Shown: positions 4,125 to 21,499, counted from the first letter of the stretch. The stretch: 64,000 bases of DNA from an uncultured delta proteobacterium (GCA_963700055.1 CAVOWH010000004.1:141250-205249), one strand, 5' to 3'. Notes: generated by a model from the letters alone, not told the origin. Translations and numbers: made by a program.

Positions 4125-4166
4125 GATGCCTCCTCTGCAGCAGCTGATGACCAACGGTCCCTTCAG

Positions 4167-4526
4167 CTACCACAACCGAATGTATTTCTTGCCGTCCCTG
4201 AGCTCGCCGCGGACCTTTTCCATGTGCCGCAAGGCGGCGATCTCGCGCTCGAGGTCCATGGGCGAGAGGTTCAGCCGCTCCACCAGATGCTCGGGCAGCA
4301 CGCCGCCGGTTTCCTGCAAGATCTCCAGTATTTTTTGCTGTAGCTCCGTCAGCTCGAACCTGCCGCCAAGCTCCTTGCCCAAGGTCTTGGCGCTGTGCAC
4401 CGCCCAGGGGTCGCAGGTTTTCGCCGGTGACAGCGCATCCATGTAACAGTCCTCGCAAAGAGTCCGGCCGAGGTGCTCCTGCTCTTCGCCCTCAGGAATC
4501 GTTGTTTCGCAACGCGCGCATTTCAT
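4167..4526 (-). CDS. Small Zn-finger (CxxC...CxxC) plus winged-helix hypothetical protein
   Basis: MKCARC...LCEDCYMD...CDPWAV N-terminus and wHTH-like C-terminus. Start moved to ATG 4526. Confidence 0.7.
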   Translation of the reverse strand: MKCARCETTIPEGEEQEHLGRTLCEDCYMDALSPAKTCDPWAVHSAKTLGKELGGRFELTELQQKILEILQETGGVLPEHLVERLNLSPMDLEREIAALRHMEKVRGELRDGKKYIRLW

Positions 4527-4701
4527 GGTTTTTCCCCCCGGCTTAAGGTTGATGAACTCGTAAAAATTCATCCGAATCGATGACTTCGTAAAGAGGCCAA
4601 GATCAAGGCGCGCGAATCGCGTGTCGCGAGGCGTACTGGCATTACGCCGCAGCGGCAGCGAGATGAAGCGCAACGCAGAGATTGGGCTATTTAGGAAGTC
4701 A

Positions 4702-5592
4702 TCAAGGTTTGATATGCCGCTCGCTGCGATAGGTGGCGATGATTCCCGCCGAACACGTCAAAACAGCGCCGACCAGAGTCAGCGTATCCAGGGTCTCGCC
4801 CCAGAAAATCCATCCCAGCAGGGCGGCAAAGACCACGTTCCCGTAGCTGAATGGCCCCACTTGGCCGGCCGGTGCCAGGCTGTAGCCCTTGGTGAGGCAT
4901 GTCTGAGCCATGATCGCCAGCACCCCCATCGCACAAAGCACCCACAGCAGGGGACCTTCAGGGTTTTCCCACGCCCATGCGAGGGGGATGGCTGAAACGA
5001 GGGTCCCGAACACGGTGAAATAGAAAACGACGCGCACGACCGGCTCTGTCACAGTCATGCGACGGATGCCAACTATGGCGAGTGCCGCGAGCAGGCCGCT
5101 GGCAAGCCCCACGAGCCCGGCCGCTTGAAACAGGCCGAAACCCGGCTTGAGCACCAGGGCGATGCCGATGAACCCCACCATCACCGCGATCTTTGTCTGC
5201 CGGCTGACCGGCTCCTTCAGCCAGAACCATTCGATGATCGGGATGAAGATCGGCAATGTGTAGCAGAGCAGCATGGCATCGGCAAGCCGCAACAGTTTCA
5301 ATGCGATGAAAAAGCAGTACATAGCGCTCAAACCGGCCGCGGCGCGCAGCAGGTGCAGGTGAAGACAGTTTGTTTTGAGGCCCACTTTCTGGTGGCGGAT
5401 CAGGAGCCAAGGCAGGAGGAACGCCATAGCCACTACATTGCGGGAAAAAACGATGACCTCGGTGGGCAAATCAGCCGATGCAACCTTCACGAGCGCCCCG
5501 ACCCCGGCGAACAGCAAGGCCGATGTGAGCACCAGCAGCCCGCCCGCAACCGGGCGGCTGCGGCGGGTGGTGTGCAATGTCAGCGGTTCCAT
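4702..5592 (-). CDS. DMT/EamA-family transporter
   Basis: About 10 TM segments in two EamA repeats; last gene of the co-directional catabolic cluster. Start placed at MEPLTLH (5592). Confidence 0.88.
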   Translation of the reverse strand: MEPLTLHTTRRSRPVAGGLLVLTSALLFAGVGALVKVASADLPTEVIVFSRNVVAMAFLLPWLLIRHQKVGLKTNCLHLHLLRAAAGLSAMYCFFIALKLLRLADAMLLCYTLPIFIPIIEWFWLKEPVSRQTKIAVMVGFIGIALVLKPGFGLFQAAGLVGLASGLLAALAIVGIRRMTVTEPVVRVVFYFTVFGTLVSAIPLAWAWENPEGPLLWVLCAMGVLAIMAQTCLTKGYSLAPAGQVGPFSYGNVVFAALLGWIFWGETLDTLTLVGAVLTCSAGIIATYRSERHIKP

Positions 5593-5687: not shown

Positions 5688-7094
5688 TCACAGCCCGTCA
5701 CCAGCCAGGGTGGCCAGGAAAACCGGCTTTACAGGCATGCGCACGGATGGAAGGGGAATGTGGGCGAGCGGCTTCCCGGTGAGTGCCGCCAGCACGTCCA
5801 AGAGTATCGTCTTGCACGTGCTGCCCTGGCAGATCCCCATCCCGCAGCGGGTGGCCTTCTTGACGGCGGCCGGCGCCTCGAACCCCTCGGCGACCGCCCG
5901 GCGGATGTCGCCCAGATCTACTTCCTCGCAGCGGCAGACGGGCACCTCGTCGGGCAGGCTGCGAATCCAGCCGGCCATGTATTGCGGTGTAAAGGAATGC
6001 TGGGAATTGAAATAGCGCGCAAACGCCATCTGCCGCTGCCGCGCCTTCTTGAGAGCGGAGACTTCTGCTTTCATTTCATCTGGTTTCAGCAGACCCAGCC
6101 GCCGCAAGATCCCAAGGCCGGCCAGGCGGCCTTCGGTCAGGGACTTGGCCGCTCCACCGATAGCGGTGATCTCGCCGGCGGCGTACATTCCGTCGACGCT
6201 GGTTTCGAGGTCCTCATTCACCTTCACGACCCAGCCGCCCAGCTGCGGATTAAACGCCAATCCGCAGCCGGCAACCTGAGCCAACTCGACGTTGGCGGTG
6301 AAGCCGAACCCCACGGCAAGGCAGCCGGCGCTGTAAGCCGTCTCGCTGCCGCGAATCACCCCTCCGGCATGGTCGACGCGGGCCGCCACCACCTCGCGCA
6401 GGCCGCCGTCTCCCCGCGCCTCGATGATGCGGATGCCGCCACACAGGGCGGTTCCTGCCAGCCGCAGCCGTGCGAGCATGGCGCCGCCCTGGGCGAACCT
6501 GGCGAACTGCCCGGACAGAAGGTCTGGCGCCGGCATCCGCTTGATAAAGCGCATCTCGTCCAGCACGGCAGGCACCCGTCCGCCGTTTTTCTGGATGTCC
6601 CGGGCAACGGCGGTCAGGAAGAGCCCCGCGCCGGCCACCAGCGTCTCCCTCGCCGGAAGGATGCCGGACTGTTTGATGAGGATCTGGACGGCGCCGGTGG
6701 CCATTACCCCGGGAAGCGTCCAGCCTTTGAAAGGGACGAACCGCTCCCTGCCGCCGGTAGCCAGCAGGATGCAATCGCATTGGATGCTCGCAATCCCGCC
6801 GTTTCCATCCGCAACCAGGAGCCCGGAACCGGCTTCGATGCCAAGCACCTCCGCACGGTTTAGGATTTCGACGGAGGATTCGGGCAAGCGCTTGATCAGG
6901 TTCAGCCCCCGGTGCCTGGCCGTGTCGATCCAGGATTGCCCCGCCCGCCTTCCACCGCGCAGATACTGGCCGCCCAGGCGCAGGTTGTCGTCCAGCACCA
7001 GCACGTTGATCCCATGGCGTCCCAGCGCATCGGCCGCGGCGACACCGGCAATCCCGCCGCCGACGATGGCGACATTCACGCGCTTAGCGGCCAT
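5688..7094 (-). CDS. FAD/NAD(P) oxidoreductase with C-terminal BFD-like [2Fe-2S] domain (HcnB/OoxA-like subunit)
   Basis: IVGGGIAG, LLATGGRERFVPFKGWTLPGVM, VCRCEEV and KKATRCGMGICQGSTC. Confidence 0.9.
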   Translation of the reverse strand: MAAKRVNVAIVGGGIAGVAAADALGRHGINVLVLDDNLRLGGQYLRGGRRAGQSWIDTARHRGLNLIKRLPESSVEILNRAEVLGIEAGSGLLVADGNGGIASIQCDCILLATGGRERFVPFKGWTLPGVMATGAVQILIKQSGILPARETLVAGAGLFLTAVARDIQKNGGRVPAVLDEMRFIKRMPAPDLLSGQFARFAQGGAMLARLRLAGTALCGGIRIIEARGDGGLREVVAARVDHAGGVIRGSETAYSAGCLAVGFGFTANVELAQVAGCGLAFNPQLGGWVVKVNEDLETSVDGMYAAGEITAIGGAAKSLTEGRLAGLGILRRLGLLKPDEMKAEVSALKKARQRQMAFARYFNSQHSFTPQYMAGWIRSLPDEVPVCRCEEVDLGDIRRAVAEGFEAPAAVKKATRCGMGICQGSTCKTILLDVLAALTGKPLAHIPLPSVRMPVKPVFLATLAGDGL

Positions 7095-7374
7095 CGGTGA
7101 GGACCTCCATGCCCGCGCGCACCTCGGTCATGCAGGCGCGCTGGTCCGGCCGCCCATCCACGGTCACCCGGCACTCCTGACAGACTCCCATTCCGCAAAA
7201 ACCACCCCTGGCGGTTTTTGTTGGACTTCTAAATGAATGCCTTAACGTCCGGACACCAGCGGCCAGCAAGGCTGCGAAAAGGGTTTCGCCGCAGCAGGCC
7301 TCAACCGGCTTTCCATTCACCCGAATCGCCACTCGCTTCCCGCGCCTCCGGTTCTTGATTCTCAAATCGTTCAT
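7084..7374 (-). CDS. Small [2Fe-2S] subunit (HcnA-like)
   Basis: GETLFAALLAAG and FCGMGVCQECRV...RAC; overlaps both neighbouring genes. Confidence 0.9.
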   Translation of the reverse strand: MNDLRIKNRRRGKRVAIRVNGKPVEACCGETLFAALLAAGVRTLRHSFRSPTKTARGGFCGMGVCQECRVTVDGRPDQRACMTEVRAGMEVLTDGR

Positions 7375-8558
7375 GCCGCACCCTGTCGAAAACGCTCCAG
7401 CCGGAAGGCGTCCAGCGGGAGCTGCGTCCGGCCCGTGGCGATCAGATCGGCAATGAGCTCGCCGGTGATGGCTGATAGCGCGATGCCGTCGCCCTCGTGG
7501 CCGGCCGCCATGATGAAGCCTTCCAGCCCCGCCACCTTCCCCAGGATCGGCAGACCGTCCGGCGTGTAGGGCCGAAGACCTCCGAAGGTGCGGATCACCG
7601 GCACGCGGTCAAGGGCCGGAATAACCGGGACGATGCGCCGGGCGATCGTGCGGATGCCCTCGAAGGTGGTGCGGCGGTCGAAGCCCACGAACTCGCGGGT
7701 CGATCCGATCAGGATGTTGCCGCTGTCCGCCTGCTCGAGCGAAAATCCCGTCCCGCCCCTTTCGGCGAGCTCCGGCTTGAACTTGGCGGCCACATATTGA
7801 GCGGAGATCAAACAGTGCCGCAGCAGCGGCGGCACTGCCGCCGTGACCAGGATCTGTCCGCGCCGCGGCGTGATCGGGATTTCCAACCCCGCCATCCGGC
7901 CGACCTCGGCCGCCAGCGCCCCCGCCGCGTTGACGACAACGGGCGCGCTGATGCGACCGTTATCGGTAAAGACCCCTGTGGCTTTACCCGCAGTCTTCTC
8001 GATCCCCTTGACCTCCACCCCCGTCAAAATCTGCGCCCCCGCGGATTTTGACGCAACCAGGAATGCGAACGTGAGCGCATACGGGTTCACCTGGGCGTCC
8101 AGCGCCGAATAGGTCGCTGCGATCACCTTCTCCGACAGACACGGCTCGCGCCGCCGGGCCTCGGAGCCTTCGATCAACTCCACAGCGAGGCCGTTTTGGC
8201 GCTGTTCCTCAACGAAAAGGCGCATGACGGCAAGTTCCGCTTCGCTTTCGATCAGGCACATGCCGCCCGGGTTCCTGAATTCGATGCTTTTCCCAAGGGT
8301 AGCGACCAGACCCTCGAAACGCCTGCGGCTTTGCAGGGCGAGCTTCAGGTGCAGACCGGGTTTCTTCGACTGCATGAACACGAGCCCGTCGCAGGCCCCT
8401 GAGCTGCCGGCGGCTGGATCGCTCTTTTCGATGAGCAGCGGCTTGATCCCATGGCGGGTGAGATGAAACGCAATGGAAGTGCCGATGACACCGGCGCCGA
8501 TGATGACGGCATCTGCCGTATGGGGGATTGACGAAGCGTTGTTCGGTTGAGTCATCAT
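7371..8558 (-). CDS. FAD-dependent D-amino-acid-oxidase-family subunit (HcnC/OoxB-like)
   Basis: IIGAGVIG, VVNAAG, PRRGQIL, GLRPYTPDGLPILG and GHEGDGI (the GHEGxG motif is typical of this subgroup). Confidence 0.9.
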   Translation of the reverse strand: MMTQPNNASSIPHTADAVIIGAGVIGTSIAFHLTRHGIKPLLIEKSDPAAGSSGACDGLVFMQSKKPGLHLKLALQSRRRFEGLVATLGKSIEFRNPGGMCLIESEAELAVMRLFVEEQRQNGLAVELIEGSEARRREPCLSEKVIAATYSALDAQVNPYALTFAFLVASKSAGAQILTGVEVKGIEKTAGKATGVFTDNGRISAPVVVNAAGALAAEVGRMAGLEIPITPRRGQILVTAAVPPLLRHCLISAQYVAAKFKPELAERGGTGFSLEQADSGNILIGSTREFVGFDRRTTFEGIRTIARRIVPVIPALDRVPVIRTFGGLRPYTPDGLPILGKVAGLEGFIMAAGHEGDGIALSAITGELIADLIATGRTQLPLDAFRLERFRQGAA

Positions 8559-8691
8559 TCAGAGAAGACCCTTCGGCTCAACGCCGACGAACGCCTGAAA
8601 CTTCTGCCACACGGATCACCACCCGCAGAAAAATTGCTCTGCTCATACCTACCTCGATGGCCCCCAATACCCGGCCAACCAGCGCGATATC

Positions 8692-9816
8692 TCAGATCTT
8701 CACATAATCCTTGGTGTATCTTTTTAGCTTCTCTTCATCGAGCTCGACGCCGAGGCCGTTTCCCACTGGCACGCGCACAGTCGCCCCATGGATGTTCTGG
8801 GCGAAATCCGTCACGTCATCCGACATTCTGACGACCGAGCCAAAAGCGTGACCTATTTCGATCAAATTGGGCAGGGTACACCCCACCTGAAGCAAAGCCG
8901 CCTGGGTGATTCCGAATTCAAACATACTGTTCATGAGGCATTGGATCCCGAAGGTCTCGGCCGTTTGAGCGATCTGTTTGGACTTGAGCAGGCCGCCATT
9001 CTTAGACGCCTTGATGCTGAAGACATCCGCCGCTCGATGCCGGATGAGTTCGGCGGCGTCCGGCGGGGTGACCAAGGCTTCGTCGGCACTCACCCGGCAG
9101 CAAGCCCGGTCCCGAATACGCCGGAGCCCCGAAATGTTCCAACGCCTTACAGGTTGCTCAATCAGATCCGGAGGAAAGTCCCGGGTTGCCTCTATGAACG
9201 CTAGTGCCTCGAACTCTTCCCAGCCTTGGTTTGCGTCCACCACCAGCGCAATCTCGTCCTTGCAATATTTTCGAGCGGAGATCAGGCGTTGAATTTCAGC
9301 GGAGATCGGCAAGCTGCCCATCTTGATCATGATTGTCCGGCAACCCCGCTGCCGGAGTTCTTCGATCGCGGCCAAGTCCTCTTTCGGCGTTCCGCTTCCG
9401 ATTCCCCATAGAATGGGCAGCTCCGCATGGTAAAGGCCTCCCAGCAACGCATGCGCCGGCATTCGCAAAGCCTTTCCGAGAATGTCATAAAACGCCATGT
9501 TGATGGCGCCTCGTGCGGTCGGGTGGCCTTGTATCGATTGGTCTAGCGTGCGCTCGGTAGCGGGAATTCGAGAAGGGTCGCATCCCAGGATGAGGGGGGC
9601 GATCATTTCCCGGGTGACGCTCATGACGGTGCCGGGAGTCTCTTCGGTAAACGGGTTCATGGGGTTGGCTTCCCCCAAGCCTACAATCCCCTCATTGGTG
9701 TGCAATTTAAAGACGACGGCATGGGCATCATGCAGTGTGCCGTAAGCCTTGGACAAATGGTAGGGTTTTGCAAAGGGGATGGCGATGTGAAAAAGCTCGA
9801 TACCTGTGATTTTCAT
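8692..9816 (-). CDS. Enolase-superfamily enzyme, muconate-lactonising subgroup (racemase/epimerase/dehydratase)
   Basis: GIVGLGEA; metal ligands in VVDANQG, IEQPV and ADEAL; IKASKNGG. Start placed at MKITGIELF (9816). Confidence 0.88.
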   Translation of the reverse strand: MKITGIELFHIAIPFAKPYHLSKAYGTLHDAHAVVFKLHTNEGIVGLGEANPMNPFTEETPGTVMSVTREMIAPLILGCDPSRIPATERTLDQSIQGHPTARGAINMAFYDILGKALRMPAHALLGGLYHAELPILWGIGSGTPKEDLAAIEELRQRGCRTIMIKMGSLPISAEIQRLISARKYCKDEIALVVDANQGWEEFEALAFIEATRDFPPDLIEQPVRRWNISGLRRIRDRACCRVSADEALVTPPDAAELIRHRAADVFSIKASKNGGLLKSKQIAQTAETFGIQCLMNSMFEFGITQAALLQVGCTLPNLIEIGHAFGSVVRMSDDVTDFAQNIHGATVRVPVGNGLGVELDEEKLKRYTKDYVKI

Positions 9817-9862
9817 TGTCCAGCCCCCCCTTGATCCGGAGCGCACCCTCGCAAGATCCTCA

Positions 9863-10960
9863 TCAGGTGCCTGTTTCGACATAGCGGAGGATCTGCGCGG
9901 CGTTCATGCCGGAAAGGCCCAAGCGCTCCGTGGTTCTTCCATTCGAGAAAAAATCCTCGCCGGTGAGAAATTGGGCCAGGTTCAAAATGGTTTCCATGCG
10001 CGGCACATCAACGCCCATCATCTTGCCGATGGAAACCATGGGCAGGAGCCCCATGGGGATATCCTCAAGGAGATACCGGGTGCGCAGGGTTTTTTGCCCG
10101 CTCACCTTTTCATAAGCGTGGTTGTTGCGAACGGCTTCGGACAGGGTTGACCCCTCCGCGCCATAGGCCATCCGGTACCACTCCCGGATGGAGGGAAGCG
10201 TGATCCCGAAAGCCCTGGCCACGGCAAGCCGTTCCTGGTCCATCGCCTCCACAAAAGCGCCGATGGAAGGGGTTATGCCATCCCAGTAATACAGCCAGTC
10301 TCTGCCGGATTCGATCAACGAAGTGTTCAACAGGGTCGGGGCCGGATGCACCATGGCATTGGGATTGCCGAGGCTGGTCTCGAGAACGTTTCTGCCGGCC
10401 CGGATCTGGGGGAAGACAGCTTGCAGCATTTCCAGCGGACGGGAGGTTTCAGCGGCTGGAAGCGCTGCAACCAGCAGGTCCTTTTTGATACCCAGAATGG
10501 ATGCCTGGCCGGGTTGAGGACTGCGGCAGGCATAGATGAGCGAGTCCGATTCCAAGATCGCGACCCGGGCACGGCATCCTTGGTCACGCAGGACTTTTCT
10601 GAACTCCAGGGCCCCGCCGGTCGCCCCGGGGTGGATGAACACCACCTGGCCATCCGTCAGAAACGGAGCGCAGCCCCGGGCCACGTCCCGGTGGGTATTG
10701 GCGGGTGTGACGACCACGATGATCCCGGCGCCGGCGAGCGCTTCGGCGGGATCGCTGGTTGCGAGTTCAACTCGCCCAAATCCCCTGATCAGGCCGTTCA
10801 AGCTAATGCCGCCTTCGGATTGGATGGCGCCAACAATCTCGGGAACCACATCCACCAGCCGGACAGCGTATCCCATCAGCCCGAGATGACCTGCGAGGGA
10901 CTGCCCGCCGTTTCCGCCGCCGATGACGACCCACGGCGGGCCGTACGTCTTCGTTTTCAT
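9863..10960 (-). CDS. NAD/NADP opine (octopine/nopaline) dehydrogenase family protein
   Basis: VIGGGNGG, IHPGATGG, GIKK, NPNAMVHP, YYWDGITP and RYLLEDIPMGL. Confidence 0.92.
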   Translation of the reverse strand: MKTKTYGPPWVVIGGGNGGQSLAGHLGLMGYAVRLVDVVPEIVGAIQSEGGISLNGLIRGFGRVELATSDPAEALAGAGIIVVVTPANTHRDVARGCAPFLTDGQVVFIHPGATGGALEFRKVLRDQGCRARVAILESDSLIYACRSPQPGQASILGIKKDLLVAALPAAETSRPLEMLQAVFPQIRAGRNVLETSLGNPNAMVHPAPTLLNTSLIESGRDWLYYWDGITPSIGAFVEAMDQERLAVARAFGITLPSIREWYRMAYGAEGSTLSEAVRNNHAYEKVSGQKTLRTRYLLEDIPMGLLPMVSIGKMMGVDVPRMETILNLAQFLTGEDFFSNGRTTERLGLSGMNAAQILRYVETGT

Positions 10961-10988
10961 GATTCATGCCTTAAAGGCGATTACTGGA

Positions 10989-11987
10989 TTAAAAAAACGG
11001 CATGCTCCCTGCCATCAGCGGCAGGACCCGACCGAGGTTGCTTCGCCGAGCCCGCTCCAGGATTTCGTTGCCTACGGCGATGTCAAGGATGGCCATGCCG
11101 AGATTGAAGTTGATGATGCGCTCGGCTGTGCTTTCCCGGGCCGGCTTTTTACCGGTCACGATTTCCCCCAGTTGGGCATAAAGCCTCGGAAGCGGAGCGT
11201 AGTACCCGGTCTCACCATCATAAAGATGACTGAATTGCCCCCAGTCATCGACAACGAACTTGTCCATTTTCCCGATCGCCGCGGTTTCCCATCCGCGTGG
11301 CCCTACGGGCAGCACGAGCGCACCGGCCTTGACCCACTGTTCCTTGAAAATGCGTCCCCTGGGCCGGCCAATGGCAGTGATGATGATGTCCGCCTCTTCA
11401 AACACCTCCTGAACCGAGGGCCTTATTTCGATCTGAAACGGTACCTGGCCCGACATCACTTCCTTCAGCCGGGCGGCTGCGGAGGAATCGGTGTCGTGGA
11501 CGCGGACGCACTGGATTCCAGGCAACACCTCCTTGAGGCTGAGCAAGTTATAGCGGCCCTGGATTCCTGCCCCCACGATGCCGACCCTCTTCGCCCCGGC
11601 GACGGCCAGATACCGGGCGGATACCCCCGACAGGGCCGCGGTACGCAGGGCGGTGATATACCCCGCTTCCAACACAGCGACCGGCTGCCCCGTAGTGACG
11701 TCGTTTAGCACCAGCAGGCCCATGATGGAGGGCAACCCATAGCGTTGGTTGCCGAAGAAGCCGCTGACCCATTTCATCCCGGAAATGTTTTTACGGGGCA
11801 GATAGGCCGGCATGGCGTGGATGAAGGCGTCTGCCAGCGGATGGACGCCCGGCTTGGGAGGATTTTCACAGGCGTTGTCGGCATGGTCCCTTAAGACGTT
11901 TTCAACGACAGCGATCGCATCGGGCATGCTGAGCCCAGCTTGAATGACATCCTCCTGGGAAAGATAAAGAAATTCGATACTCTTCAT
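10989..11987 (-). CDS. Ornithine cyclodeaminase/mu-crystallin family protein
   Basis: HAMPAY, GMKWVSG, ITALRTAA, IVGAGIQG, GEIVTGKKPARE and NLGMAILDIA. Confidence 0.92.
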   Translation of the reverse strand: MKSIEFLYLSQEDVIQAGLSMPDAIAVVENVLRDHADNACENPPKPGVHPLADAFIHAMPAYLPRKNISGMKWVSGFFGNQRYGLPSIMGLLVLNDVTTGQPVAVLEAGYITALRTAALSGVSARYLAVAGAKRVGIVGAGIQGRYNLLSLKEVLPGIQCVRVHDTDSSAAARLKEVMSGQVPFQIEIRPSVQEVFEEADIIITAIGRPRGRIFKEQWVKAGALVLPVGPRGWETAAIGKMDKFVVDDWGQFSHLYDGETGYYAPLPRLYAQLGEIVTGKKPARESTAERIINFNLGMAILDIAVGNEILERARRSNLGRVLPLMAGSMPFF

Positions 11988-13286: not shown

Positions 13287-14033
13287 TTACAAGGGCCGTG
13301 ATGCCGCCACCGCCTCCTCGCGGGGCATGAGAGATTCTTTGATGATTTGCCGGATGTCGCTCTCAAAATCCTTTTTAGGGCCGGTTTTTTTCACCTGCCC
13401 CATGTCCAGTAGATACATGTAGTCGGAAATTTCGAGGGCCTTCATGATGTTTTGATCCACGATCAGGATCGTTGTGCCCTGATGGGCGATTTTGATGAGC
13501 AACTCATAGATCTCGGTGGTGATCTTGGGAGAAAGACCCACGGAAGGCTCGTCGATCATCAACAACGAGGGTTCGGACATGATTTCCTTGCCCACCGACA
13601 GCATCCGCAAATAGCCACCGCTGAGGACGTTGGCTTTTTGATTCCGCCGATCGGCCAGCACCGGGAAAAAATCATAGATTTCCGCCAATCGTTGGGCCAC
13701 CCGGCGCTTGTCCTGTCGGAAGGTCCAGGCCCCGAGCAGCAGATTGTCCTTAACCGTCAGATCCGGAAACGTGCTGTACTCCTGGAGCATGTAGCTGATG
13801 CCCATCTGCTTGAGTTGGTAGGGATGGCAGGTGTGGATTTCTCTGCCCCGGAAGACGATGCTGCCTTTGCGCGGATGCAGGAAGCCGAAGGCAGTCTTCA
13901 TCACGGTGGATTTGCCGGCGCCGTTGGCACCGATGATCCCCGTGATGGCACCTTCTTTGGCCTCAAGGCAGACGTCGCGCAGTATATCGATGCCTTCCAC
14001 ATAACCGACGGTAACGTCGCTGAGCCTCAGCAT
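13287..14033 (-). CDS. Branched-chain amino acid ABC transporter ATPase (LivF-like)
   Basis: GANGAGKST, LSGG and MIDEPSVGLSP. Start placed at MLRLSDV (14033). Confidence 0.92.
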   Translation of the reverse strand: MLRLSDVTVGYVEGIDILRDVCLEAKEGAITGIIGANGAGKSTVMKTAFGFLHPRKGSIVFRGREIHTCHPYQLKQMGISYMLQEYSTFPDLTVKDNLLLGAWTFRQDKRRVAQRLAEIYDFFPVLADRRNQKANVLSGGYLRMLSVGKEIMSEPSLLMIDEPSVGLSPKITTEIYELLIKIAHQGTTILIVDQNIMKALEISDYMYLLDMGQVKKTGPKKDFESDIRQIIKESLMPREEAVAASRPL

Positions 14034-14043
14034 GGGGTAGTCG

Positions 14044-14805
14044 CTATCCTCCCAGGTATGCGTCGATGACCTGCGGATCGCCGGCAACTTCCGCCAGCGT
14101 GCCTTCGGCTATTCGCTCGCCGTGGCTGAGCATCGTAACCTTGCTGCACAAAGTGCTGATCGTCGGCATCTCATGGCTGATGACCAGAAAGGTCACCCTC
14201 TTCTCTCTGTTCATCCAACGGATGGCCTCAAGAATGATGCCCTTGATGGACTGATGGACTCCGGCAAAGGGTTCATCCATCACGTACAGCTGAAGGTTTT
14301 TATGCATGAACCCTCGGACGATTTGAAGCAACATGCTCTGGCCGCCCGACAGGCTCTTGGCCGGTTTGTCCTTGAGCCGGCTCAACAGGGCAAACTCCAG
14401 CAATTCATTGGATCGAGCCTTGGCCTCGCGCCGGGTCTGGCCTTGGCAGAAGGCCGGGATCAGCATGTTTTCCATCACACTCATTTCCCGAAATATTTTG
14501 GCGACCTGAAATGTGCGCATAATGCCGAGAGAAGCAATCACATCGGGTTGCAGGCCGTCGATCCGCCGGCCCGCAAAATGGATGCTTCCGCTGGTCACCT
14601 CATACATTCCGGTGATCAGGTTGATAAGTGTGGTCTTTCCTGAGCCGTTGGGCCCGATCAACCCCCGGACCTCCCCACTGGCCAAGGACAGAGTAATTCC
14701 GTTGTTGGCGATCAGCCCCCCGAATTTCTTTACGACATCCCGCATTTCCAACAACAGGGGGCCGGAATCAGAACGGTCATCTTGGGGGTGCGTCATGTTT
14801 TCCAC
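14044..14805 (-). CDS. Branched-chain amino acid ABC transporter ATPase (LivG-like)
   Basis: GPNGSGKTT, LSGGQ, MDEPFAGV and VIDAYLG. Confidence 0.92.
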   Translation of the reverse strand: MENMTHPQDDRSDSGPLLLEMRDVVKKFGGLIANNGITLSLASGEVRGLIGPNGSGKTTLINLITGMYEVTSGSIHFAGRRIDGLQPDVIASLGIMRTFQVAKIFREMSVMENMLIPAFCQGQTRREAKARSNELLEFALLSRLKDKPAKSLSGGQSMLLQIVRGFMHKNLQLYVMDEPFAGVHQSIKGIILEAIRWMNREKRVTFLVISHEMPTISTLCSKVTMLSHGERIAEGTLAEVAGDPQVIDAYLGG

Positions 14806-14835
14806 GTGGCCGCGAGTCCCGAGGTGAGCAGTGCC

Positions 14836-15801
14836 CTATTTGTCATAGGCTGACACCGATTCTCTGCCTTTCAGGTGAAGCCATCGGGGCAACCGGTGGA
14901 CCAGCTCCATGAGACCGCCATTGAAAAAACGCATGACCAAAATCACCAGTATGCTCAGGATGACGATGCGGATTTCCGACTGCGCCCGCAACATTTCCAG
15001 TGCAATGCGGATTACGATGGCGCCTATCACTGGCCCCGTCTGAGTGCGCATGCCTCCGATGACCACAAAAATGATGATCATGGCCATCTCATTGAAATCC
15101 CCCATGACGGGACTGATCAAACCGATGCTATGCCCGAAAAAGGCACCCGCCATTCCTGCGAGGGCGCTGGCGATGATGAAAGCCAGCACCTTGTAACGCA
15201 CGATGTTGACGCCCATGGACCGTGCTGCAATAGCGTCATCGCGGATTGCGCGCAAATAGTATCCCATGCGCGAGTGCATGATGACGGCGATGATGCCCAC
15301 CGTGAACACCAGGATGCCCAGGAACAGGTAGTAATACGGCAGGGGCTTCATGGTTCCAAACAGCAGGGCGGAATCCATGCCGCGATCGCCGCCGGTGAAG
15401 GCATAATGCATACGCATATAATTGCGCACCACTTCGGCGAAGGCCCACGTGATCAGGGCGAGGTAAAGCCCATGCACCTTCAGACAGATCACACCCAGAG
15501 CCCAGCTCAGAACGACCGCCATTAGGATCGCGGCCGCAATCCCCGGCCCGAAGCCCACTTCGGCCTTGGCCATCAGCAGGGTTGAGGTGTAAGCGCTGAT
15601 CATGGCAAACGTGTGGTGTCCTAAAGAGAACTGCCCGGTGTATCCGGCCAGCAGATTCCAGCTGGCGGCCATGGCAGCGTAGAAGAAGGCGATGGTGAGC
15701 ACATAGATCCAGTATTCCGATATGCCCACCGGAAGACCAATGGCCGCGGCAAGTGCTCCGGCCAGTCCGATCGTTTTCATGAGTCGGGTATTCATGCTCA
15801 T
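14836..15801 (-). CDS. Branched-chain amino acid ABC permease (LivM-like)
   Basis: SWNLLAGYTGQFSLGH, LALITWAFAE, RAIRDD and VVIGG. Start at MSMNTRL (15801) or 15795. Confidence 0.9.
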   Translation of the reverse strand: MSMNTRLMKTIGLAGALAAAIGLPVGISEYWIYVLTIAFFYAAMAASWNLLAGYTGQFSLGHHTFAMISAYTSTLLMAKAEVGFGPGIAAAILMAVVLSWALGVICLKVHGLYLALITWAFAEVVRNYMRMHYAFTGGDRGMDSALLFGTMKPLPYYYLFLGILVFTVGIIAVIMHSRMGYYLRAIRDDAIAARSMGVNIVRYKVLAFIIASALAGMAGAFFGHSIGLISPVMGDFNEMAMIIIFVVIGGMRTQTGPVIGAIVIRIALEMLRAQSEIRIVILSILVILVMRFFNGGLMELVHRLPRWLHLKGRESVSAYDK

Positions 15802-15841
15802 CAGAGAGGCATAGGCAGGGCAAGTTCTATCGTGGCGCAAT

Positions 15842-16732
15842 TCAAACGACGCGCTCCGGCTTGCCGAACAGCCCATAGGGTTTGAGAAGCAAGATGCCAA
15901 CCAACAAAACAAATCCGTAAATGTCGACAAACGACGGGCTGATGAACGCCGACCCCAGGCTTTCGGCTATGCCCAAAAGCAGACCTGCCACCAAGATTCC
16001 CGGTATGGAACCCAGACCGGCAATGACAATGATTTCGAAACCGCGGACCGTTGGCACTAGACCACAAGTCGGATGCACCAAAAAAATAGGCGCCAGCAGA
16101 GCACCCGCCGCGCCAGCAAGGGCCGTGCCGATCCCGAAGGCGAGCATGTCGTACTTGAGAACGTCCACGCCAGCGGTTTGAATTCCGGTACGGTTCTGGG
16201 CCACGCCCTGAAATGCCTTCCCAGGCCATGATTTCTTGATGAAATAATAAAAAAGGCCCAGCACAACAATCGCCCCGAGCATGGCGATAACGCGGTTGCC
16301 ACTCAGAGGCAGCGTCAGCAGTTGCGTGGGGCCAGCGTAATCGGGAGGCGTGTAGATGTATGGGCCCCCGATGGCCACTGCCATGTTTCGAAGGCAGATG
16401 GAAAGTGTGATCGTGACAATCGTCGCATACTCCATTTTTGATTCGATGATGCCGACAAACATCGGTTTGATCAGCGTATGCTGAACCACGGCCCCCAGGG
16501 CGAAAACAATCACGGCTGCGATGATGACACCGACGTACCAGAAATGCACAGGAAAAACGTACAGCAGCAGTAGGTATTGAACGAATGAACCGATCATGAA
16601 AAATTCGCCCATCGACCAATTGATCACCTTCATGATACCATAAATGAAGTTGATCCCCATGGACATCAAGCAGTACAGAATGCCCATGATGAGGCCGGAG
16701 AGCAGAAATTGAGTGAAAAGGGTGAAGTCGAT
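15842..16732 (-). CDS. Branched-chain amino acid ABC permease (LivH-like); probable ATC start at 16732
   Basis: GINFIYGIMKVINWSMGEF and FEIIVIAGLGS. The frame is open upstream of ATG 16687 to ATC-GAC-TTC-ACC (xDFTLFTQFLLSGLIMG), which lies 9 nt after an AAGGAG RBS. Confidence 0.85.
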   Translation of the reverse strand: MDFTLFTQFLLSGLIMGILYCLMSMGINFIYGIMKVINWSMGEFFMIGSFVQYLLLLYVFPVHFWYVGVIIAAVIVFALGAVVQHTLIKPMFVGIIESKMEYATIVTITLSICLRNMAVAIGGPYIYTPPDYAGPTQLLTLPLSGNRVIAMLGAIVVLGLFYYFIKKSWPGKAFQGVAQNRTGIQTAGVDVLKYDMLAFGIGTALAGAAGALLAPIFLVHPTCGLVPTVRGFEIIVIAGLGSIPGILVAGLLLGIAESLGSAFISPSFVDIYGFVLLVGILLLKPYGLFGKPERVV

Positions 16733-16878
16733 GGCTTTAATCTCCTTACGAGTCCATCACGTTTGGATATTCAATACAACTATCAGCAAAAAGACCTGGG
16801 CGGGCTCGCCGCGGCCGTTGCCCTGGCGAGCCTGCGCCTGAACAATAATCGATCGATTTAAACTAATGCTCGGCCGCT

Positions 16879-18108
16879 TTAAGGGTTGACGATTTTTCCG
16901 TCGCCGCCGAACTGCGGCGGCCATACCAGTTTGGATTTGGTGAAATCTTGCTTGACTTCCGTCTGTTGTAGGACCAAGTGCGGCGGCGACACATTGTGCC
17001 ATTTAACGCTGTCCGGTTCTTCGAATTTGACCTCACCGCTCCAGTCCGAAAATTTGCCGCTCACCAGCGCCATTTGGAGATCCTTAGGGTTGTCGGACTT
17101 TGCAAGATTCAGGGCTTGCGCGATGACCAGAACTTCGCCGAAGGCATTCAGCGCGTAGAATGTCGGATCTTCATTATAGAGTTGTTTGTATTTTGGCATC
17201 ATCCAGTCACCGAACTTCGTCATCAGCATCCCCGGCTTGTAGTAGGCAGTGTATAGAATGTAGACGCCGTTCGCACCGACCGCATCCCAGTACTCCGGTC
17301 GGATCGGCCAGTCAAAAGATGCCAGCATCTTGGTTTTTGGGAAAAGACCGATATCGAAAGCCTGCTTGACCATGAGATAAGCCGGCGGGCCAACTCCTAT
17401 GTTGATGAGTATATCCGGGTTCCATGCCTTGGTCTCGAGCAGCATGGGGGTCATGTCAGTGATAGTGCGGGGGAAAATGATCGACTTGATCTCCAAACCG
17501 GCATCTTTGGCGGCATTTTTCACCGCTGTCTCAAAGCCTGTACCATAGTCCGTGTCTTCGGCAATGACCGCAAGCTTCTTAAAACCCATGTTTTTGGCAA
17601 AATCGATCCAGAACTTCGCACGGTCTGGTGTCAGTGACATGATGCTGAAAATATATGGATTCTTCGACAGTGTGATCTCCGGGCTAGAGGCCCCGGTGGA
17701 GAACAAGGGAACCTCAAGATCCTTAGCAAGTTTGTTGACCGCCAGACACACGGAACTGTGGTACTGGCCAATCACCGCCACGGCGTTATCTTTCTGGACG
17801 AGCTTTCGGAATCCAGCGATGCCATCGGCGGGGGTGCCCGCATCATCCTCCACCACCAGTTCCACCGGCCTGCCGTTCAAAACTCCACCCATTTCCTCGT
17901 TGATATACTTGATCCCAAGTTCTGCGCCCCACCGTATCCGTTTTCCGGCCGCCGGATCACCGGGCGGTGAAAAAGGTGATAGAAGACCGATTTTGACGGG
18001 TTTGCCCTTGGGCTGGGCATAAGTTGGCGTCAGCCCCGTCAGCACCAGGGCGATGGTCAGAAACGCTATGGTCAAACAACTAAGCTTTCGGGTGTGCAAC
18101 GTTTTCAT
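16879..18108 (-). CDS. ABC substrate-binding protein (LivK/Leu-Ile-Val-binding family)
   Basis: Signal peptide, VKIGLLSP, GGVLNGRPVELVVEDD and IGQYHSSV. Confidence 0.92.
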   Translation of the reverse strand: MKTLHTRKLSCLTIAFLTIALVLTGLTPTYAQPKGKPVKIGLLSPFSPPGDPAAGKRIRWGAELGIKYINEEMGGVLNGRPVELVVEDDAGTPADGIAGFRKLVQKDNAVAVIGQYHSSVCLAVNKLAKDLEVPLFSTGASSPEITLSKNPYIFSIMSLTPDRAKFWIDFAKNMGFKKLAVIAEDTDYGTGFETAVKNAAKDAGLEIKSIIFPRTITDMTPMLLETKAWNPDILINIGVGPPAYLMVKQAFDIGLFPKTKMLASFDWPIRPEYWDAVGANGVYILYTAYYKPGMLMTKFGDWMMPKYKQLYNEDPTFYALNAFGEVLVIAQALNLAKSDNPKDLQMALVSGKFSDWSGEVKFEEPDSVKWHNVSPPHLVLQQTEVKQDFTKSKLVWPPQFGGDGKIVNP

Positions 18109-18215: not shown

Positions 18216-19796
18216 TCAGAATCGTTTTAGTTGGAAACCTGAGCGCTCGCGATCCCAGCAGTCCTGGGTGTCCCGGCTGAGATTTTTCTTGCGGATTCGC
18301 TCCGTAGGGGTTTTTTCAAAGCCGTTCGCCCAAGTGATGTAGCGCGGAATTTGAAAATAAGGCATGCGGGGTTCACACCATCGGATCAACTCCAGGGGGG
18401 CGAGCGTTGCGCCTGGCACGCATTGGATGAATGCCTTGAGATCCTCTTCCCCCACTTCGGCGGGTACCCCAACCACTGCACTTTCTTGGATCAACGGATG
18501 TGAATTCAATATGCGCTCAACTTCCCAGGCAGAGATGTTTTCGCCGCGTCGCCGGATGCTGTCATTCTTGCGGCCAACATAATAAAAATTGCCCTCTTCG
18601 TCGTAATATCCAAGATCACCCGTGTAAAGCCACCCGTTGCGCAAAGCGGCGGCCGTGGCTTCTGGATTTTCCAAGTAGCCTTCTGTAATCAGCCCGGGCT
18701 CCTTACCCCGCATGATAAATTCCCCGACACGGCCGGGAGGCAACGGATTCCCGGCGTCGTCGATGATCGAGACATCCAGGTAGGAGAGGGGCTTGCCGAT
18801 GGAGCCGATCTTACCGGAAGTATTTAACGTCGTGAACCCGGATCCTTCCGTGAGCCCGTACACCTCGCGGATTCTGATTCCGAAGCGCTGTTCAAAGGCT
18901 TCCCAAATTCGGGGGGGGCAGCCCGCGCCGAAGGCCAGGGTAATGGAATGCGACCGGTCATCAGGGCGGAGTGCCGGTTTGAGCAATATCTCCAGAACGC
19001 CCCCGAGGTAGTGTAATTTGGTCACCCGGTACCGATGGACCTGGTCCCAGAAACGAGAGGCGCTGAAACGCGGCACGATGGCTAATGTTATGGATTCTTG
19101 GAGTGCCAGGACGCACATTTCAGCCCCGGCACTGTGATAAATGGGCTCCCACAACAGGAACACATCCCCGGCCTGCACGTCGGCGGCTATTCCGGCACCG
19201 ATGGCGCAGGTGCGCAGCATCCTTTCGGTCATCAAGGCCCCCTTGGGCATTCCGGTTGTGCCCGAGGTAAACATGATGGCCCGCGTGTCATGGATTGCCG
19301 GAGTGGTGGCCGGCGGCAGACTGTCTTCTCCGGCCACAACTGCGTAGTCCATTGCGCCGGCACTTTTCAACAAACCGGCGCTGGCCCCTCGCAGCGCAAC
19401 CGCTTCCAACAATAACGCAGACGATAGGGACTCCAAAAGACCCCAGTATTCTGCTTCTGCGATGATCGCCCTTGGCAAGGCCTTGGTTAAAATCCACTCC
19501 AGGCTGCCGCCGCGGAGGTTGACATTGACCGGTACCCAGACGGCTCCCAAAGCAGAGAGGGCAAAAAAGGTGAACACGTGGTCTACGTGGTTGTTCAGCA
19601 TTACGGCCACGCGCTGACCCGGTCTAATCCCGATCTTTGAAAAACCGTTGGCTAACTGGTAAACGCTTTTTTCTAATGTGCGAAAATCGATTTCACGGTC
19701 TTCACAAATGGCAAAAACATCGTCTGGGGTTCGGCGAGCGCGGGATTCGAGGAGCTGACGTATGGTTCGTTTGGGGCCCATCGCAACATTTCTCAA
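18216..19796 (-). CDS. Acyl-CoA synthetase (CaiC crotonobetaine/carnitine-CoA-ligase-like)
   Basis: FTSGTTGMPKG, EVYGLTE, YTGD, RRRGENIS and KTPTERIRK. Start is TTG 19796 or ATG 19781. Confidence 0.9.
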   Translation of the reverse strand: MRNVAMGPKRTIRQLLESRARRTPDDVFAICEDREIDFRTLEKSVYQLANGFSKIGIRPGQRVAVMLNNHVDHVFTFFALSALGAVWVPVNVNLRGGSLEWILTKALPRAIIAEAEYWGLLESLSSALLLEAVALRGASAGLLKSAGAMDYAVVAGEDSLPPATTPAIHDTRAIMFTSGTTGMPKGALMTERMLRTCAIGAGIAADVQAGDVFLLWEPIYHSAGAEMCVLALQESITLAIVPRFSASRFWDQVHRYRVTKLHYLGGVLEILLKPALRPDDRSHSITLAFGAGCPPRIWEAFEQRFGIRIREVYGLTEGSGFTTLNTSGKIGSIGKPLSYLDVSIIDDAGNPLPPGRVGEFIMRGKEPGLITEGYLENPEATAAALRNGWLYTGDLGYYDEEGNFYYVGRKNDSIRRRGENISAWEVERILNSHPLIQESAVVGVPAEVGEEDLKAFIQCVPGATLAPLELIRWCEPRMPYFQIPRYITWANGFEKTPTERIRKKNLSRDTQDCWDRERSGFQLKRF

Positions 19797-19875
19797 ATAT
19801 TGCTAAAAAGACCTGGTAGGCCGAGGTGAGGTTCTCAGGAGGCGGATGCCTGAAGAATTCAGTTGCCGTTGATAG

Positions 19876-20649
19876 TCATTGCTTGCGCCGCTGCGCGCGC
19901 TCCGCCAGGAAGCGGCGCATGTACTCTTGAGGCTCACCGGTTTCGTAGGCTTCGCGGTGGTAGCGAACCGCCGCATCCATGGTTTCTTGAAAACTGGCTT
20001 CCGTGACTTCCTGGAAACGCTTTTTTATGAGTCGCATGGCGTGAGGGGGTTTTGCGGCCAGCTCCTTGGCCGTTTTCATGGCTGCGCGCCTCAGTTCTTC
20101 TCGAGGAACTAGTTGGTGGATAATCCCGGTGTGTAAGCACTCCTCGGCATTCATCATGCGTCCCATCAGGGTGAGCTCTATGGTGCGAGATAGCCCCAGC
20201 ATCTCGCGCATGATCCAGGGACCCGTGATGCTCAAAATGCCGGAATTTATTTCCGGTTGGCCCATCATCACCCCGGGATGGCCAATTCGGACGTCGGCCA
20301 ACAGCGCCACCTGGAAACCCGAGCCGGCAGCAACTCCGTTCAAGGCTGCCACTAGTGGCTTCGACAGGCGCCTGATCGACCCGTATAGCACCCGCCATTC
20401 TTCGATCCAGGCTTCAGCCCCATCAGGGTCGAACTCCTTTGCCTCTTTGAGGTCTTGGCCTGCACAAAAAGCCCGCTCTCCGGAACCTGTCAAAAGAATA
20501 GCACGAATGGCCGCATTGCACTCAAATTCCCTGAGCGAAGCAATCAGCTCATTTCTCATGGATCGGTTCCAGGCATTCAGGGACTCTGGCCGGTTCAACG
20601 TTATGAGGCCAACATCCCCCTCCGCCTGAACAACGAGAAACTGCAACAT
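19876..20649 (-). CDS. Crotonase/enoyl-CoA hydratase-superfamily enzyme, CarB/ThnE-like subtype
   Basis: LNRPESLNA, FCAGQDL, GVAAGSGFQVAL and GQPEINSG (single catalytic Glu). Start placed at MLQFLVV (20649). Confidence 0.88.
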   Translation of the reverse strand: MLQFLVVQAEGDVGLITLNRPESLNAWNRSMRNELIASLREFECNAAIRAILLTGSGERAFCAGQDLKEAKEFDPDGAEAWIEEWRVLYGSIRRLSKPLVAALNGVAAGSGFQVALLADVRIGHPGVMMGQPEINSGILSITGPWIMREMLGLSRTIELTLMGRMMNAEECLHTGIIHQLVPREELRRAAMKTAKELAAKPPHAMRLIKKRFQEVTEASFQETMDAAVRYHREAYETGEPQEYMRRFLAERAQRRKQ

Positions 20650-20715
20650 GGCAATCCTTTTTCTTGCAGGTATAGGAAATTGGCCTTGTGACCGATTTAA
20701 TGATTCGATCCTGAG

Positions 20716-20745
20716 TGAATAGCAGCGCCGAAGGAAAGCTGTCAA
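20716..20745 (-). promoter_or_regulatory. Candidate sigma70 promoter for the catabolic cluster
   Basis: Minus-strand TTGACA-N18-TATTCA upstream of the crotonase gene. Confidence 0.35.
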
Positions 20746-20800
20746 GCAATTCTTAGGCAAGCGGCTTGTTTACTGAAAGGACTGATGGTAAACAGGTGGC

Positions 20801-21499
20801 ATGAGCGTGAAACCAACTCCGGCACCCCCGGCCGTCATCGGCATCCTGGTGATGGATGCCCGCATCGAGCGGATCCCCGGGGATGTCGGCAACCCGGCGA
20901 CCTTTCCTTTCCCGGTGATCTGCCGCACGGTGGCCGGCGCCACCCTCAAGCGGCTGATCAGCAACCGCGATCGATCGCTGCTGACGCCGTTTACCGAAGC
21001 CGGGTGGGAACTTGTGCGGCAGGGGGTGCGGGCACTGACCACGAGCTGCGGGTTCATGATCCTTTTTCAGGAGGAGCTTGCACGGGAGTTCCCGGTACCG
21101 GTGCTCACGTCAAGCCTGCTGCAGTTGCCCTTCATCCAGGCGGCCCTGCGCCCTCAGGATCGAATCGGAATTATAACCGCCGATGCTTCCAACCTGACAC
21201 CGGAGCACCTGAGCCAAGCCGGCGGAGACACGGGCAGGATCACGGTGGCCGGGCTTGAAAACCAGCCCAAATTCAGAGAAGCGATTTTCGAAGAAACCGG
21301 ACGTATCGATGTTCAGGGCGTCGAATCGGAAGTGGTGGAACAGGCCAAGCGCATGGTTACGGCCGACCCGCGTATCGCCGCGATCCTCTTCGAATGCGCC
21401 AACCTCCCGCCCTTCGCGGCCGCCGTCCGGGCGGCTATCGGGCTGCCGGTCTTTGACGCCGTCACCATGATCAGGCATGTGCATGCGGCGCTTGCATAG
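20801..21499 (+). CDS. Asp/Glu/hydantoin racemase-family protein
   Basis: RIPGDVGNPATFPFPV family signature and paired Cys motifs TTSCGF and FECANLPP; divergent from the cluster. Confidence 0.85.
   Translation: MSVKPTPAPPAVIGILVMDARIERIPGDVGNPATFPFPVICRTVAGATLKRLISNRDRSLLTPFTEAGWELVRQGVRALTTSCGFMILFQEELAREFPVPVLTSSLLQLPFIQAALRPQDRIGIITADASNLTPEHLSQAGGDTGRITVAGLENQPKFREAIFEETGRIDVQGVESEVVEQAKRMVTADPRIAAILFECANLPPFAAAVRAAIGLPVFDAVTMIRHVHAALA

Follow-up and report, generated by a model that had tools for sequence, protein, structure and literature searches.

This study concerns a crotonase-fold enzyme and the AMP-forming acyl-CoA ligase encoded beside it in a 64,000-nucleotide stretch of DNA from an uncultured delta proteobacterium (GCA_963700055.1 CAVOWH010000004.1:141250-205249; hereafter the window, with positions counted from its first letter). 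I conclude that the crotonase is very probably a non-hydratase member of the clade that contains the carboxymethylproline synthases (CMPS) CarB and ThnE, and that it acts on the product of the ligase. A beta-amino- or beta-iminoacyl-CoA as its substrate, with lyase-type cleavage at C-beta, comes close to an even chance without quite reaching it. The particular reaction favoured here, tentatively, is a retro-Mannich C-C cleavage of a beta-aminoacyl-CoA to acetyl-CoA and a cyclic imine, which would amount to the C-C step of CarB run backwards. The original prediction made from this DNA had described a CarB/ThnE-like crotonase with a single catalytic Glu, paired with a CaiC-like ligase, and had proposed a C-N lyase working by a retro-aza-Michael reaction.

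The crotonase and the ligase are an obligate pair

The reading frame of the crotonase is free of stops from 19876 to 20760 on the minus strand, and its likely start is the ATG at 20649, six bases after an AAGGA ribosome-binding site. Pfam ECH_1 (PF00378) matches residues 10-251 with 171.5 bits against a cut-off of 27. The ligase starts ~94 bp downstream of the end of the crotonase and belongs to the ANL superfamily, as judged by its scores for AMP-binding (229.8 bits) and AMP-binding_C (38.8 bits), and it carries the core motifs TSGTTG, YGLTE, and GWLYTGD.

In a genome-collection scan, relatives of the crotonase turned up across Alpha-, Beta-, and Deltaproteobacteria, in no fewer than 444 species, and the cultured carriers include Microvirga, Bosea, and Variovorax. 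The ligase is systematically the obligate partner of these enzymes: a co-directional copy lies downstream in 74/74 loci with more than ~4.1 kb of downstream DNA, a count that leaves out nine loci without a ligase, all of them truncated contigs. It adjoins the crotonase in 27 loci, whereas in 43 transporter genes intervene and the distance is ~4 kb. The clusters encode importers of the binding-protein type together with IclR or LysR regulators, and the type of transporter follows the lineage, with LivK in Desulfobacterales-type loci and in the window, PotD/MotA in Alphaproteobacteria, and TctC in Betaproteobacteria. The claim that the two enzymes act together in a transporter-containing catabolic cluster is supported by this pairing and by the importer within the operon of the window, and the observation is more general than the original prediction implied.

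The family placement of the ligase is looser. Every NCBIfam model falls below its cut-off, the best being PRK06155 (423 bits versus 722), followed at a distance by the CaiC model NF005947 (313 versus 651) and by malonyl-CoA synthetase models (189 versus 558), and a PDB sequence search returned generic ANL enzymes only. Calling the ligase CaiC-like is therefore acceptable as a loose description, but it misses the CaiC cut-off and is 30% identical to E. coli CaiC. At its C-terminus (18216-18260, ...PTERIRKK...), an Arg occupies the position aligned with the catalytic A10 Lys of E. coli CaiC (SGK). The same Arg is found in nearly all 74 ligase orthologues within a motif [ST][EQL]RI.K, with a conserved Lys three residues on. 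The Arg may mark a form of the adenylation motif peculiar to this family, or it may reflect a shifted alignment.

The active site departs from that of canonical hydratases

Canonical enoyl-CoA hydratases (ECH, EC 4.2.1.17) carry two catalytic glutamates, E144 and E164 in the rat enzyme. The crotonase has Gln113 at the first of these positions, aligned with the Glu of GGGLE in 5ZAI, GGGCE in 5Z7R, and GGGFE in E. coli CaiD, and Glu133 at the second, aligned with the second catalytic Glu of the same three proteins. The motifs GSGFQ, QPEINSG, and WIEEW, on which attention had first been drawn to this gene, are all present where they had been placed (Table 1). Both active-site residues are among 13 that are identical in 84/84 family sequences (W27, G64, Q65, D66, E69, W81, Y89, S110, F112, Q113, E133, W145, and E239). 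Two segments that would form the oxyanion hole, CAGQD (G64-Q65-D66) and AAGSGFQ, are aligned with ThnE G107 and V153 and with CarB G62 and M108, so that the hole appears by alignment to be kept through the backbone of Q65 and S110.

Changing E144 of rat ECH to Gln lowers kcat more than 1000-fold. Since the site of the water-activating Glu is invariably occupied by Gln113, the crotonase is unlikely, judging from its sequence, to be a plain hydratase, and on this point the original prediction stands; the family also lies outside the sequences with Glu at both positions (E/E) in every tree described below. No NCBIfam model reaches its cut-off on the crotonase. The best hydratase models are PRK06143 (160 bits versus 283), EchA19 (153 versus 400), and PRK05862 (152 versus 396), and a region-only NCBIfam scan found no CMPS model. 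Membership in CaiD is likewise not indicated: CaiD has GGGFE and PE at the two sites and is 32% identical, its model NF002936 is outside the 25 best models for the full-length protein, and in the trees CaiD lies apart from the family, joined to another sequence with 98% support. An ordinary enoyl-CoA or crotonobetainyl-CoA hydratase that works despite the Gln would agree with the generic ECH_1 fold, with the 32-35% identity to true hydratases, and with the name 'enoyl-CoA hydratase' that database sources give the protein. Set against the invariant Gln, the kcat loss in the rat mutant, the position in the trees, and the failure of every hydratase and CaiD model to reach its cut-off, it is the least probable of the readings considered here. 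In whole-length PDB searches, ordinary hydratases scored ~141 bits, CarB 98 bits, and the ThnE entry 5O34 101 bits; with the active-site segment only, 5O34 rose to as high as rank 3 and CarB to rank 7.

Relation to CarB and ThnE

CarB and ThnE work in three steps: malonyl-CoA is decarboxylated, the resulting enolate attacks the imine carbon of L-pyrroline-5-carboxylate (P5C) from the Re-face and so makes a C-C bond, and the thioester of the t-CMP-CoA product is finally hydrolysed (PMC6542682); C-C bond formation by CarB is also described in PMC3962088. The oxyanion hole of CarB consists of the backbone of Gly62 and Met108 (PMC6542682; PMC3962088), with Gln111 and Trp79 as the presumed binding residues for the L-GHP/P5C partner (PMC3962088).

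ThnE was recovered from the S. cattleya plasmid pSCAT (L086:1333-2217, 294 aa), where it matches the 5O34 fragment, and further CMPS homologues were gathered by a search with ThnE. BLASTP aligned the crotonase with ThnE at 29% identity over 240 residues with two gaps only, and the columns that match its motifs read GVGLQ, MPEF, and AWIDD in ThnE (5O34; pSCAT L086). W81, Q113, E133, and H231 are aligned with the ThnE residues equivalent to CarB W79, Q111, E131, and H229, so the window protein has the CMPS active-site set; the shared-derived positions F73, W81, Y89, Q113, and M244 fall exactly on CarB numbering (W79, Q111). All 13 ThnE homologues keep W/Y/Q/E/H at these columns. The set is absent from CaiD, PaaF, PaaG, MenB, MMCD, two other pSCAT crotonases, and six paralogues from the window's own genome, which encodes 12 crotonases in all, one of them in the subfamily typified by the structure 4KD6. 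PRK06143, the best NCBIfam model for the crotonase, is also the best for ThnE and two other CMPS homologues.

Trees were built with ThnE and its homologues (CarB itself and BvaB1/B2, two lyases discussed below, are not among the rows). A maximum-likelihood tree of 38 rows grouped the family with ThnE at a support of 96/87, and in a tree of 44 rows the family was sister to the 13-member CMPS clade with an SH-aLRT of 95. The CMPS clade itself was monophyletic at 100% support with the family outside it, which places the crotonase next to, and not inside, CMPS proper. An exhaustive search with HMMER returned 326 representative clusters (E <= 1e-30), and most of the top 115 full-length representatives carry the W81/Q113/E133 signature. 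In a 159-row tree, a clade of 116 rows (support 92) united ~90 further representatives with the family and the CMPS group; of these 116 rows, 99 have Gln at the first and Glu at the second catalytic position (Q/E), and none of the named E. coli, pSCAT, or own-genome reference crotonases lies inside it. This Q/E clade with W81 and Y89, which holds both the family and CMPS, is very large and almost wholly uncharacterised (representatives P0247-P0396). The contigs of its more distant members were either too short for an analysis of gene context or gave no informative one. To my knowledge, CarB and ThnE are the sole characterised members, and the Gln/Glu branch has been studied through these antibiotic-pathway enzymes only.

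CarB-likeness thus holds in the trees with limited robustness. The description of a CarB/ThnE-like single-Glu crotonase is borne out by the signature residues and by the grouping with CMPS. In the phylogenetic comparison that had been suggested for it, the family goes with CMPS and away from CaiD, PaaF, and the E/E paralogues, although as a fellow member of a wide Gln/Glu clade and not as a CMPS. A forward, biosynthetic C-C synthase, which would join an acyl-CoA enolate to a cyclic imine supplied by the neighbouring oxidoreductases, shares this clade and these active-site residues and would have imine-forming enzymes adjacent to it. I consider it very improbable: binding-protein importers with IclR/LysR regulators are typical of catabolism, no beta-lactam synthetase or CarC-type gene was found among the neighbours scanned, and the family lies outside the monophyletic CMPS clade.

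Proposed reaction and its alternatives

The residues that the crotonase has in common with CMPS would, by analogy, hold a cyclic imine or amino acid beside a CoA-thioester enolate. In the retro-Mannich route, the importer would take up an amino or imino carboxylic acid akin to carboxymethyl-proline or homoproline, in which the beta-carbon of one carboxyl arm bears the nitrogen, and the ligase would convert it to the CoA thioester; because the ligase is the partner of the crotonase, the acyl-CoA is probably made from the imported free acid. The crotonase would then reverse the C-C step of CarB, with the amine lone pair expelling the thioester enolate, which would be stabilised by the oxyanion hole and protonated by Glu133 to give acetyl-CoA. 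A P5C-like cyclic imine would be left, to be cleared by housekeeping enzymes or by neighbouring imine- or amine-handling ones. Among the neighbours, the OCD/SbnB, HcnCAB-like, opine-dehydrogenase-like, and enolase genes come from families that serve in the metabolism of proline-type imino acids and opines, and their products may prepare stereoisomers or remove the imine.

Genes for beta-oxidation (acyl-CoA dehydrogenase, thiolase, 3-hydroxyacyl-CoA dehydrogenase) are not recurrent in the clusters, and some operons contain only a regulator, the crotonase, the ligase, and a receptor; therefore, the product of the crotonase is probably already a central metabolite. The smallest betaproteobacterial operons, which consist of LysR and a crotonase-ligase-TctC unit, fit a one-step release of central metabolites. 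At its boldest, the proposal would make the pair the first CoA-dependent retro-Mannich C-C lyase system, a catabolic mirror of CarB that yields acetyl-CoA and a cyclic imine from beta-amino acids of the carboxymethyl-proline type, and this wider claim is held with more reserve than the reaction itself.

The main rival is the C-N lyase first proposed, in which Glu133 would take the alpha-proton of a beta-(N-substituted)aminoacyl-CoA and the protonated amine would leave, giving an enoyl-CoA and the amine. Glu133 is the counterpart of the alpha-proton-handling Glu of ECH, and a protonated amine would need no second acid, which would make Gln113 tolerable. A pathway of ligase and crotonase-fold C-N lyase does exist for beta-valine in Pseudomonas sp. 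SBV1, with BvaA and BvaB1/B2 (PMC4619459). The context of the window is rich in amine-handling enzymes, and in related Desulfobacterales loci two MDR-type dehydrogenases with weak similarity to acryloyl-CoA reductases follow the ligase. The precedent cited in the original prediction was misremembered, however: CarB had been said to form a C-N bond by addition of an amine to an enoyl-CoA, and it forms a C-C bond in a Mannich reaction (PMC6542682, PMC3962088). Nor is the one-Glu pattern a signature of C-N lyases, because BvaB1/B2, the only crotonase-fold C-N lyases so far demonstrated for beta-aminoacyl-CoA, keep both Glu (PMC4619459). An enoyl-CoA product would arise in clusters without conserved genes to process it, and the residues in common with CMPS are those that hold the imine next to the enolate (PMC3962088). 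C-N and retro-Mannich cleavage are two comparable lyase options, of which the latter is in my reading the more parsimonious, and retro-aza-Michael cleavage, chemically feasible in itself, is regarded as doubtful.

One-Glu crotonases also include delta3,delta2-enoyl-CoA isomerases, which lends some credit to an enzyme that merely moves a proton with a single base, either as an alpha-epimerase or racemase or as a 1,3-proton-shift isomerase (enamine/imine or double-bond shift), on a CoA-activated N-substituted acid intractable to pyridoxal phosphate enzymes. The Asp/Glu-racemase-family and enolase-superfamily genes in the window suggest a theme of alpha-proton abstraction on a molecule with several stereocentres. 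Such an enzyme would spend two ATP equivalents per inversion, would have no recurrent thioesterase or CoA-transferase to release its product, and would lead nowhere in the minimal betaproteobacterial operons; it is accordingly improbable.

The Asp/Glu racemase superfamily, to which the neighbouring racemase-family gene belongs, also contains arylmalonate decarboxylase. This is one of the points in favour of a CarB-like half-reaction without C-C cleavage, i.e. decarboxylation of a substituted malonyl-type CoA ester, hydrolysis of the thioester after rearrangement, or both. The moderate similarity of the ligase to malonyl-CoA synthetase models and the TctC-type carboxylate receptors of the betaproteobacterial operons point the same way, and CarB itself decarboxylates malonyl-CoA and hydrolyses t-CMP-CoA (PMC6542682). 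Ligation followed by plain hydrolysis would be futile, though, nothing points to a malonate-type substrate, and the conserved W81/Q113 pocket would be left unexplained, all of which makes a half-reaction quite improbable. The probability that remains is reserved for unforeseen chemistry.

Several points weigh against the retro-Mannich reading. Position 231 is His in the window protein and in 27/84 family sequences, and Gln in 56/84, and Q65, E84, W85, S110, and W145 are specific to the family and unlike CMPS. When six signature columns were removed, the free tree search no longer recovered the grouping of the family with CMPS; a tree constrained to contain it was 2.04 log-likelihood units better, and the approximately unbiased (AU) test did not separate the two (p = 0.55). 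In the 159-row tree, CMPS branches early within the broad Q/E clade and is not the nearest relative of the family, and functions within this clade may differ. E133 could also have another role, given the link between CarB Glu131 and thioester hydrolysis. Betaproteobacterial loci show little nitrogen-related context, and I know of no abundant natural substrate of the carboxymethylproline type, even though members of the family have been found in at least 444 species. No precedent for a crotonase with retro-Mannich activity was found in the literature searched, and searches combining enoyl-CoA hydratase, aza-Michael, and CoA ligase, or crotonase, opine, CoA ligase, and OCD, found nothing relevant.

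Gene neighbourhood in the window and in related loci

Table 1. Features of the crotonase-ligase locus, in window coordinates.
Feature	Position	Strand	Remarks
Crotonase-fold enzyme, 257 aa	19876..20649	(-)	4KD6-type subfamily within Gln/Glu clade; Pfam ECH_1 2.7e-50
AMP-forming acyl-CoA ligase, 521 aa	18216..19781	(-)	Start ATG 19781; Pfam AMP-binding 6e-68
GSGFQ motif	20311..20325	(-)	Ser110 backbone NH as predicted part of oxyanion hole (CarB M108 / ThnE V153); Gln113 = CarB Q111
QPEINSG motif	20239..20259	(-)	Carries Glu133 = ECH Glu164 = CarB Glu131
WIEEW motif	20395..20409	(-)	Trp81 = CarB W79; Glu84, Trp85 family-specific
His231	19957..19959	(-)	Aligned with ThnE H274 / CarB H229
LivK/H/M/G/F-type ABC importer	13287..18108	(-)	Same operon; Pfam Peripla_BP_6, BPD_transp_2 x2, ABC_tran x2
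Orphan NAD(P)-type dehydrogenase, 384 aa	12090..13244	(-)	AF2 fold
Secondary-amine/imino-acid enzymes	5688..11987	(-)	SbnB/OCD family, opine-dehydrogenase-like, enolase superfamily, HcnC/A/B-like flavo-Fe-S dehydrogenase
Asp/Glu-racemase-family gene, divergent	20801..21499	(+)	NCBIfam PRK07475, above cut-off
Divergent control region, crotonase versus Asp/Glu-racemase-family gene	20650..20800	.	Sequence read

Downstream of the ligase, the operon continues with the importer, an orphan dehydrogenase, OCD/SbnB, opine-dehydrogenase-like, and enolase-superfamily genes, the HcnC/A/B-like trio, and an EamA transporter. The enolase-superfamily gene is related to cis-3-hydroxyproline dehydratase, and there is no NCBIfam equivalog for the crotonase, the ligase, the orphan, or the opine-dehydrogenase-like gene. 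A scan of the divergent control region for a consensus sigma-70 promoter gave no match. Matches to the LivK-type binding protein include both amino-acid and aromatic-acid binders and for this reason do not fix the substrate; the alphaproteobacterial binding protein is nearest to agropine-, mannopine-, and gamma-aminobutyrate (GABA)-binding proteins. The ATG start of the LivH-like permease reading frame (15842-16747, minus strand) apparently truncates the first membrane helix.

Near the pair, HcnC-like genes were counted in 38/83 loci, HcnB-like genes in 29/83, OCD genes in 24/83, and racemase-family genes in 10/83, the last being recurrent beside the pair in Desulfobacterales-type loci. An aldehyde dehydrogenase was rejected as a conserved P5C-handling neighbour, being present in only 5 loci. 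A second crotonase as a follow-on hydratase was rejected too, as it is confined to 3 loci and has neither Glu; these copies, from Variovorax, Achromobacter, and an Azospirillaceae metagenome-assembled genome (MAG), read GGGCS ... VPVAKLG (L058:13144-14091, L073:13529-14311, L082:8285-9070). In one Desulfobacterales locus (L002), a true saccharopine-dehydrogenase-family gene (3286-4449), an AsnC regulator (4450-4926), and a polar-amino-acid ABC system lie just upstream of the HcnCAB-crotonase-ligase block.

The orphan dehydrogenase has no Pfam, NCBIfam, or PDB sequence match, and the PDB search was equally without a match for the racemase-family gene. The AlphaFold2 (AF2) model of the orphan (pTM 0.79) has an LDH/MDH-like fold at a TM of ~0.55-0.6, and a language-model (atlas) search points to Sacchrp_dh_NADP-like, saccharopine-dehydrogenase-like NADP binders. 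Distant relatives (~22-27% identity) were found by tblastn in 20/83 loci, and G11, G13, N146, D151, H200, and R209 and a GGYPV motif are invariant. In alphaproteobacterial operons such relatives come immediately behind the ligase, and for this reason the orphan may be a third core component of the system.

The cluster is carried by 1/24 congeners searched and therefore belongs to an accessory island. The contig of the single carrier (L004, JBLMXM010000323.1; G015:C323) is 90% identical and syntenic, its record is labelled as a Hyphomicrobiales MAG, and the next closest homologues are from Desulfobacterales, which suggests horizontal transfer of the island or a questionable taxonomic label of that record.

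Significance

Crotonases are the textbook case of one fold with many enolate chemistries. The Gln/Glu branch is large, as the count of Q/E rows in the 116-row clade indicates, and it contains a tight, widespread subfamily, represented structurally by 4KD6, whose genes are firmly tied to those of a CoA ligase and of importers within catabolic islands. If the reaction of this subfamily were assigned, thousands of genes that now bear the name 'enoyl-CoA hydratase' would gain an annotation, and it would become apparent how bacteria break down a class of beta-amino or imino acids. If true, a retro-Mannich lyase would be the first functional handle on the Gln/Glu clade with its hundreds of otherwise uncharacterised 50%-identity clusters, and such enzymes are a possible source of reversible C-C or C-N bond-forming biocatalysts, kin to those engineered from CarB.

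Comparison with known systems

PDB entry 4KD6, from another organism, belongs to the same subfamily as the crotonase (E = 2.4e-90, ~65% identity) and has the same AAGS(A/G)FQ and GQPEIN motifs. It is a structural-genomics 'enoyl-CoA hydratase/isomerase' with no assigned function, and no mention of it was found in the literature searched.

Hydroxycinnamoyl-CoA hydratase-lyase (HCHL), also a crotonase, first hydrates its substrate and then frees acetyl-CoA by breaking a C-C bond in a retro-aldol reaction. Its entries 2VSS and 2J5I are among the PDB matches, and its retro-aldol step corresponds to the proposed retro-Mannich step with oxygen in place of nitrogen, but the enzyme is distant (~82-104 bits), has another residue set, and needs the prior hydration.

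E. coli CaiC (carnitine-CoA ligase) and CaiD (crotonobetainyl-CoA hydratase) are likewise an adjacent ligase and crotonase that act on an amine-bearing acid. CaiD differs in having both Glu (GGGFE, PEAK) and in falling elsewhere in the trees, no Cai NCBIfam model reaches its cut-off, and there is no counterpart of CaiA or CaiB at the locus. The BvaA/BvaB system, a beta-valinyl-CoA ligase with two ammonia lyases that take the beta-amino group off the acyl-CoA, resembles the window pair in combining a CoA ligase with a crotonase-fold enzyme, and a dedicated ligase is what all of the 74 scorable loci have. BvaB1/B2 differ from the crotonase in their two catalytic Glu (E113/E133; E120/E140) and in their primary-amine substrate, and BvaA is of the phenylacetate-CoA-ligase type, a different ANL subfamily from the window ligase.

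CarB and ThnE (2A7K, 5O34; Pectobacterium and Streptomyces cattleya) share with the crotonase the fold, the Gln at Q111 (Q113 here), the single Glu at E131 (E133), Trp79 (W81), the Tyr at position 89 of the window protein, and H229 (H231). They have carbapenem genes (CarA, CarC) as neighbours, in contrast to the acyl-CoA ligase, ABC importer, oxidoreductases, and racemase-family gene found here, and they work in the direction opposite to that proposed for the crotonase.

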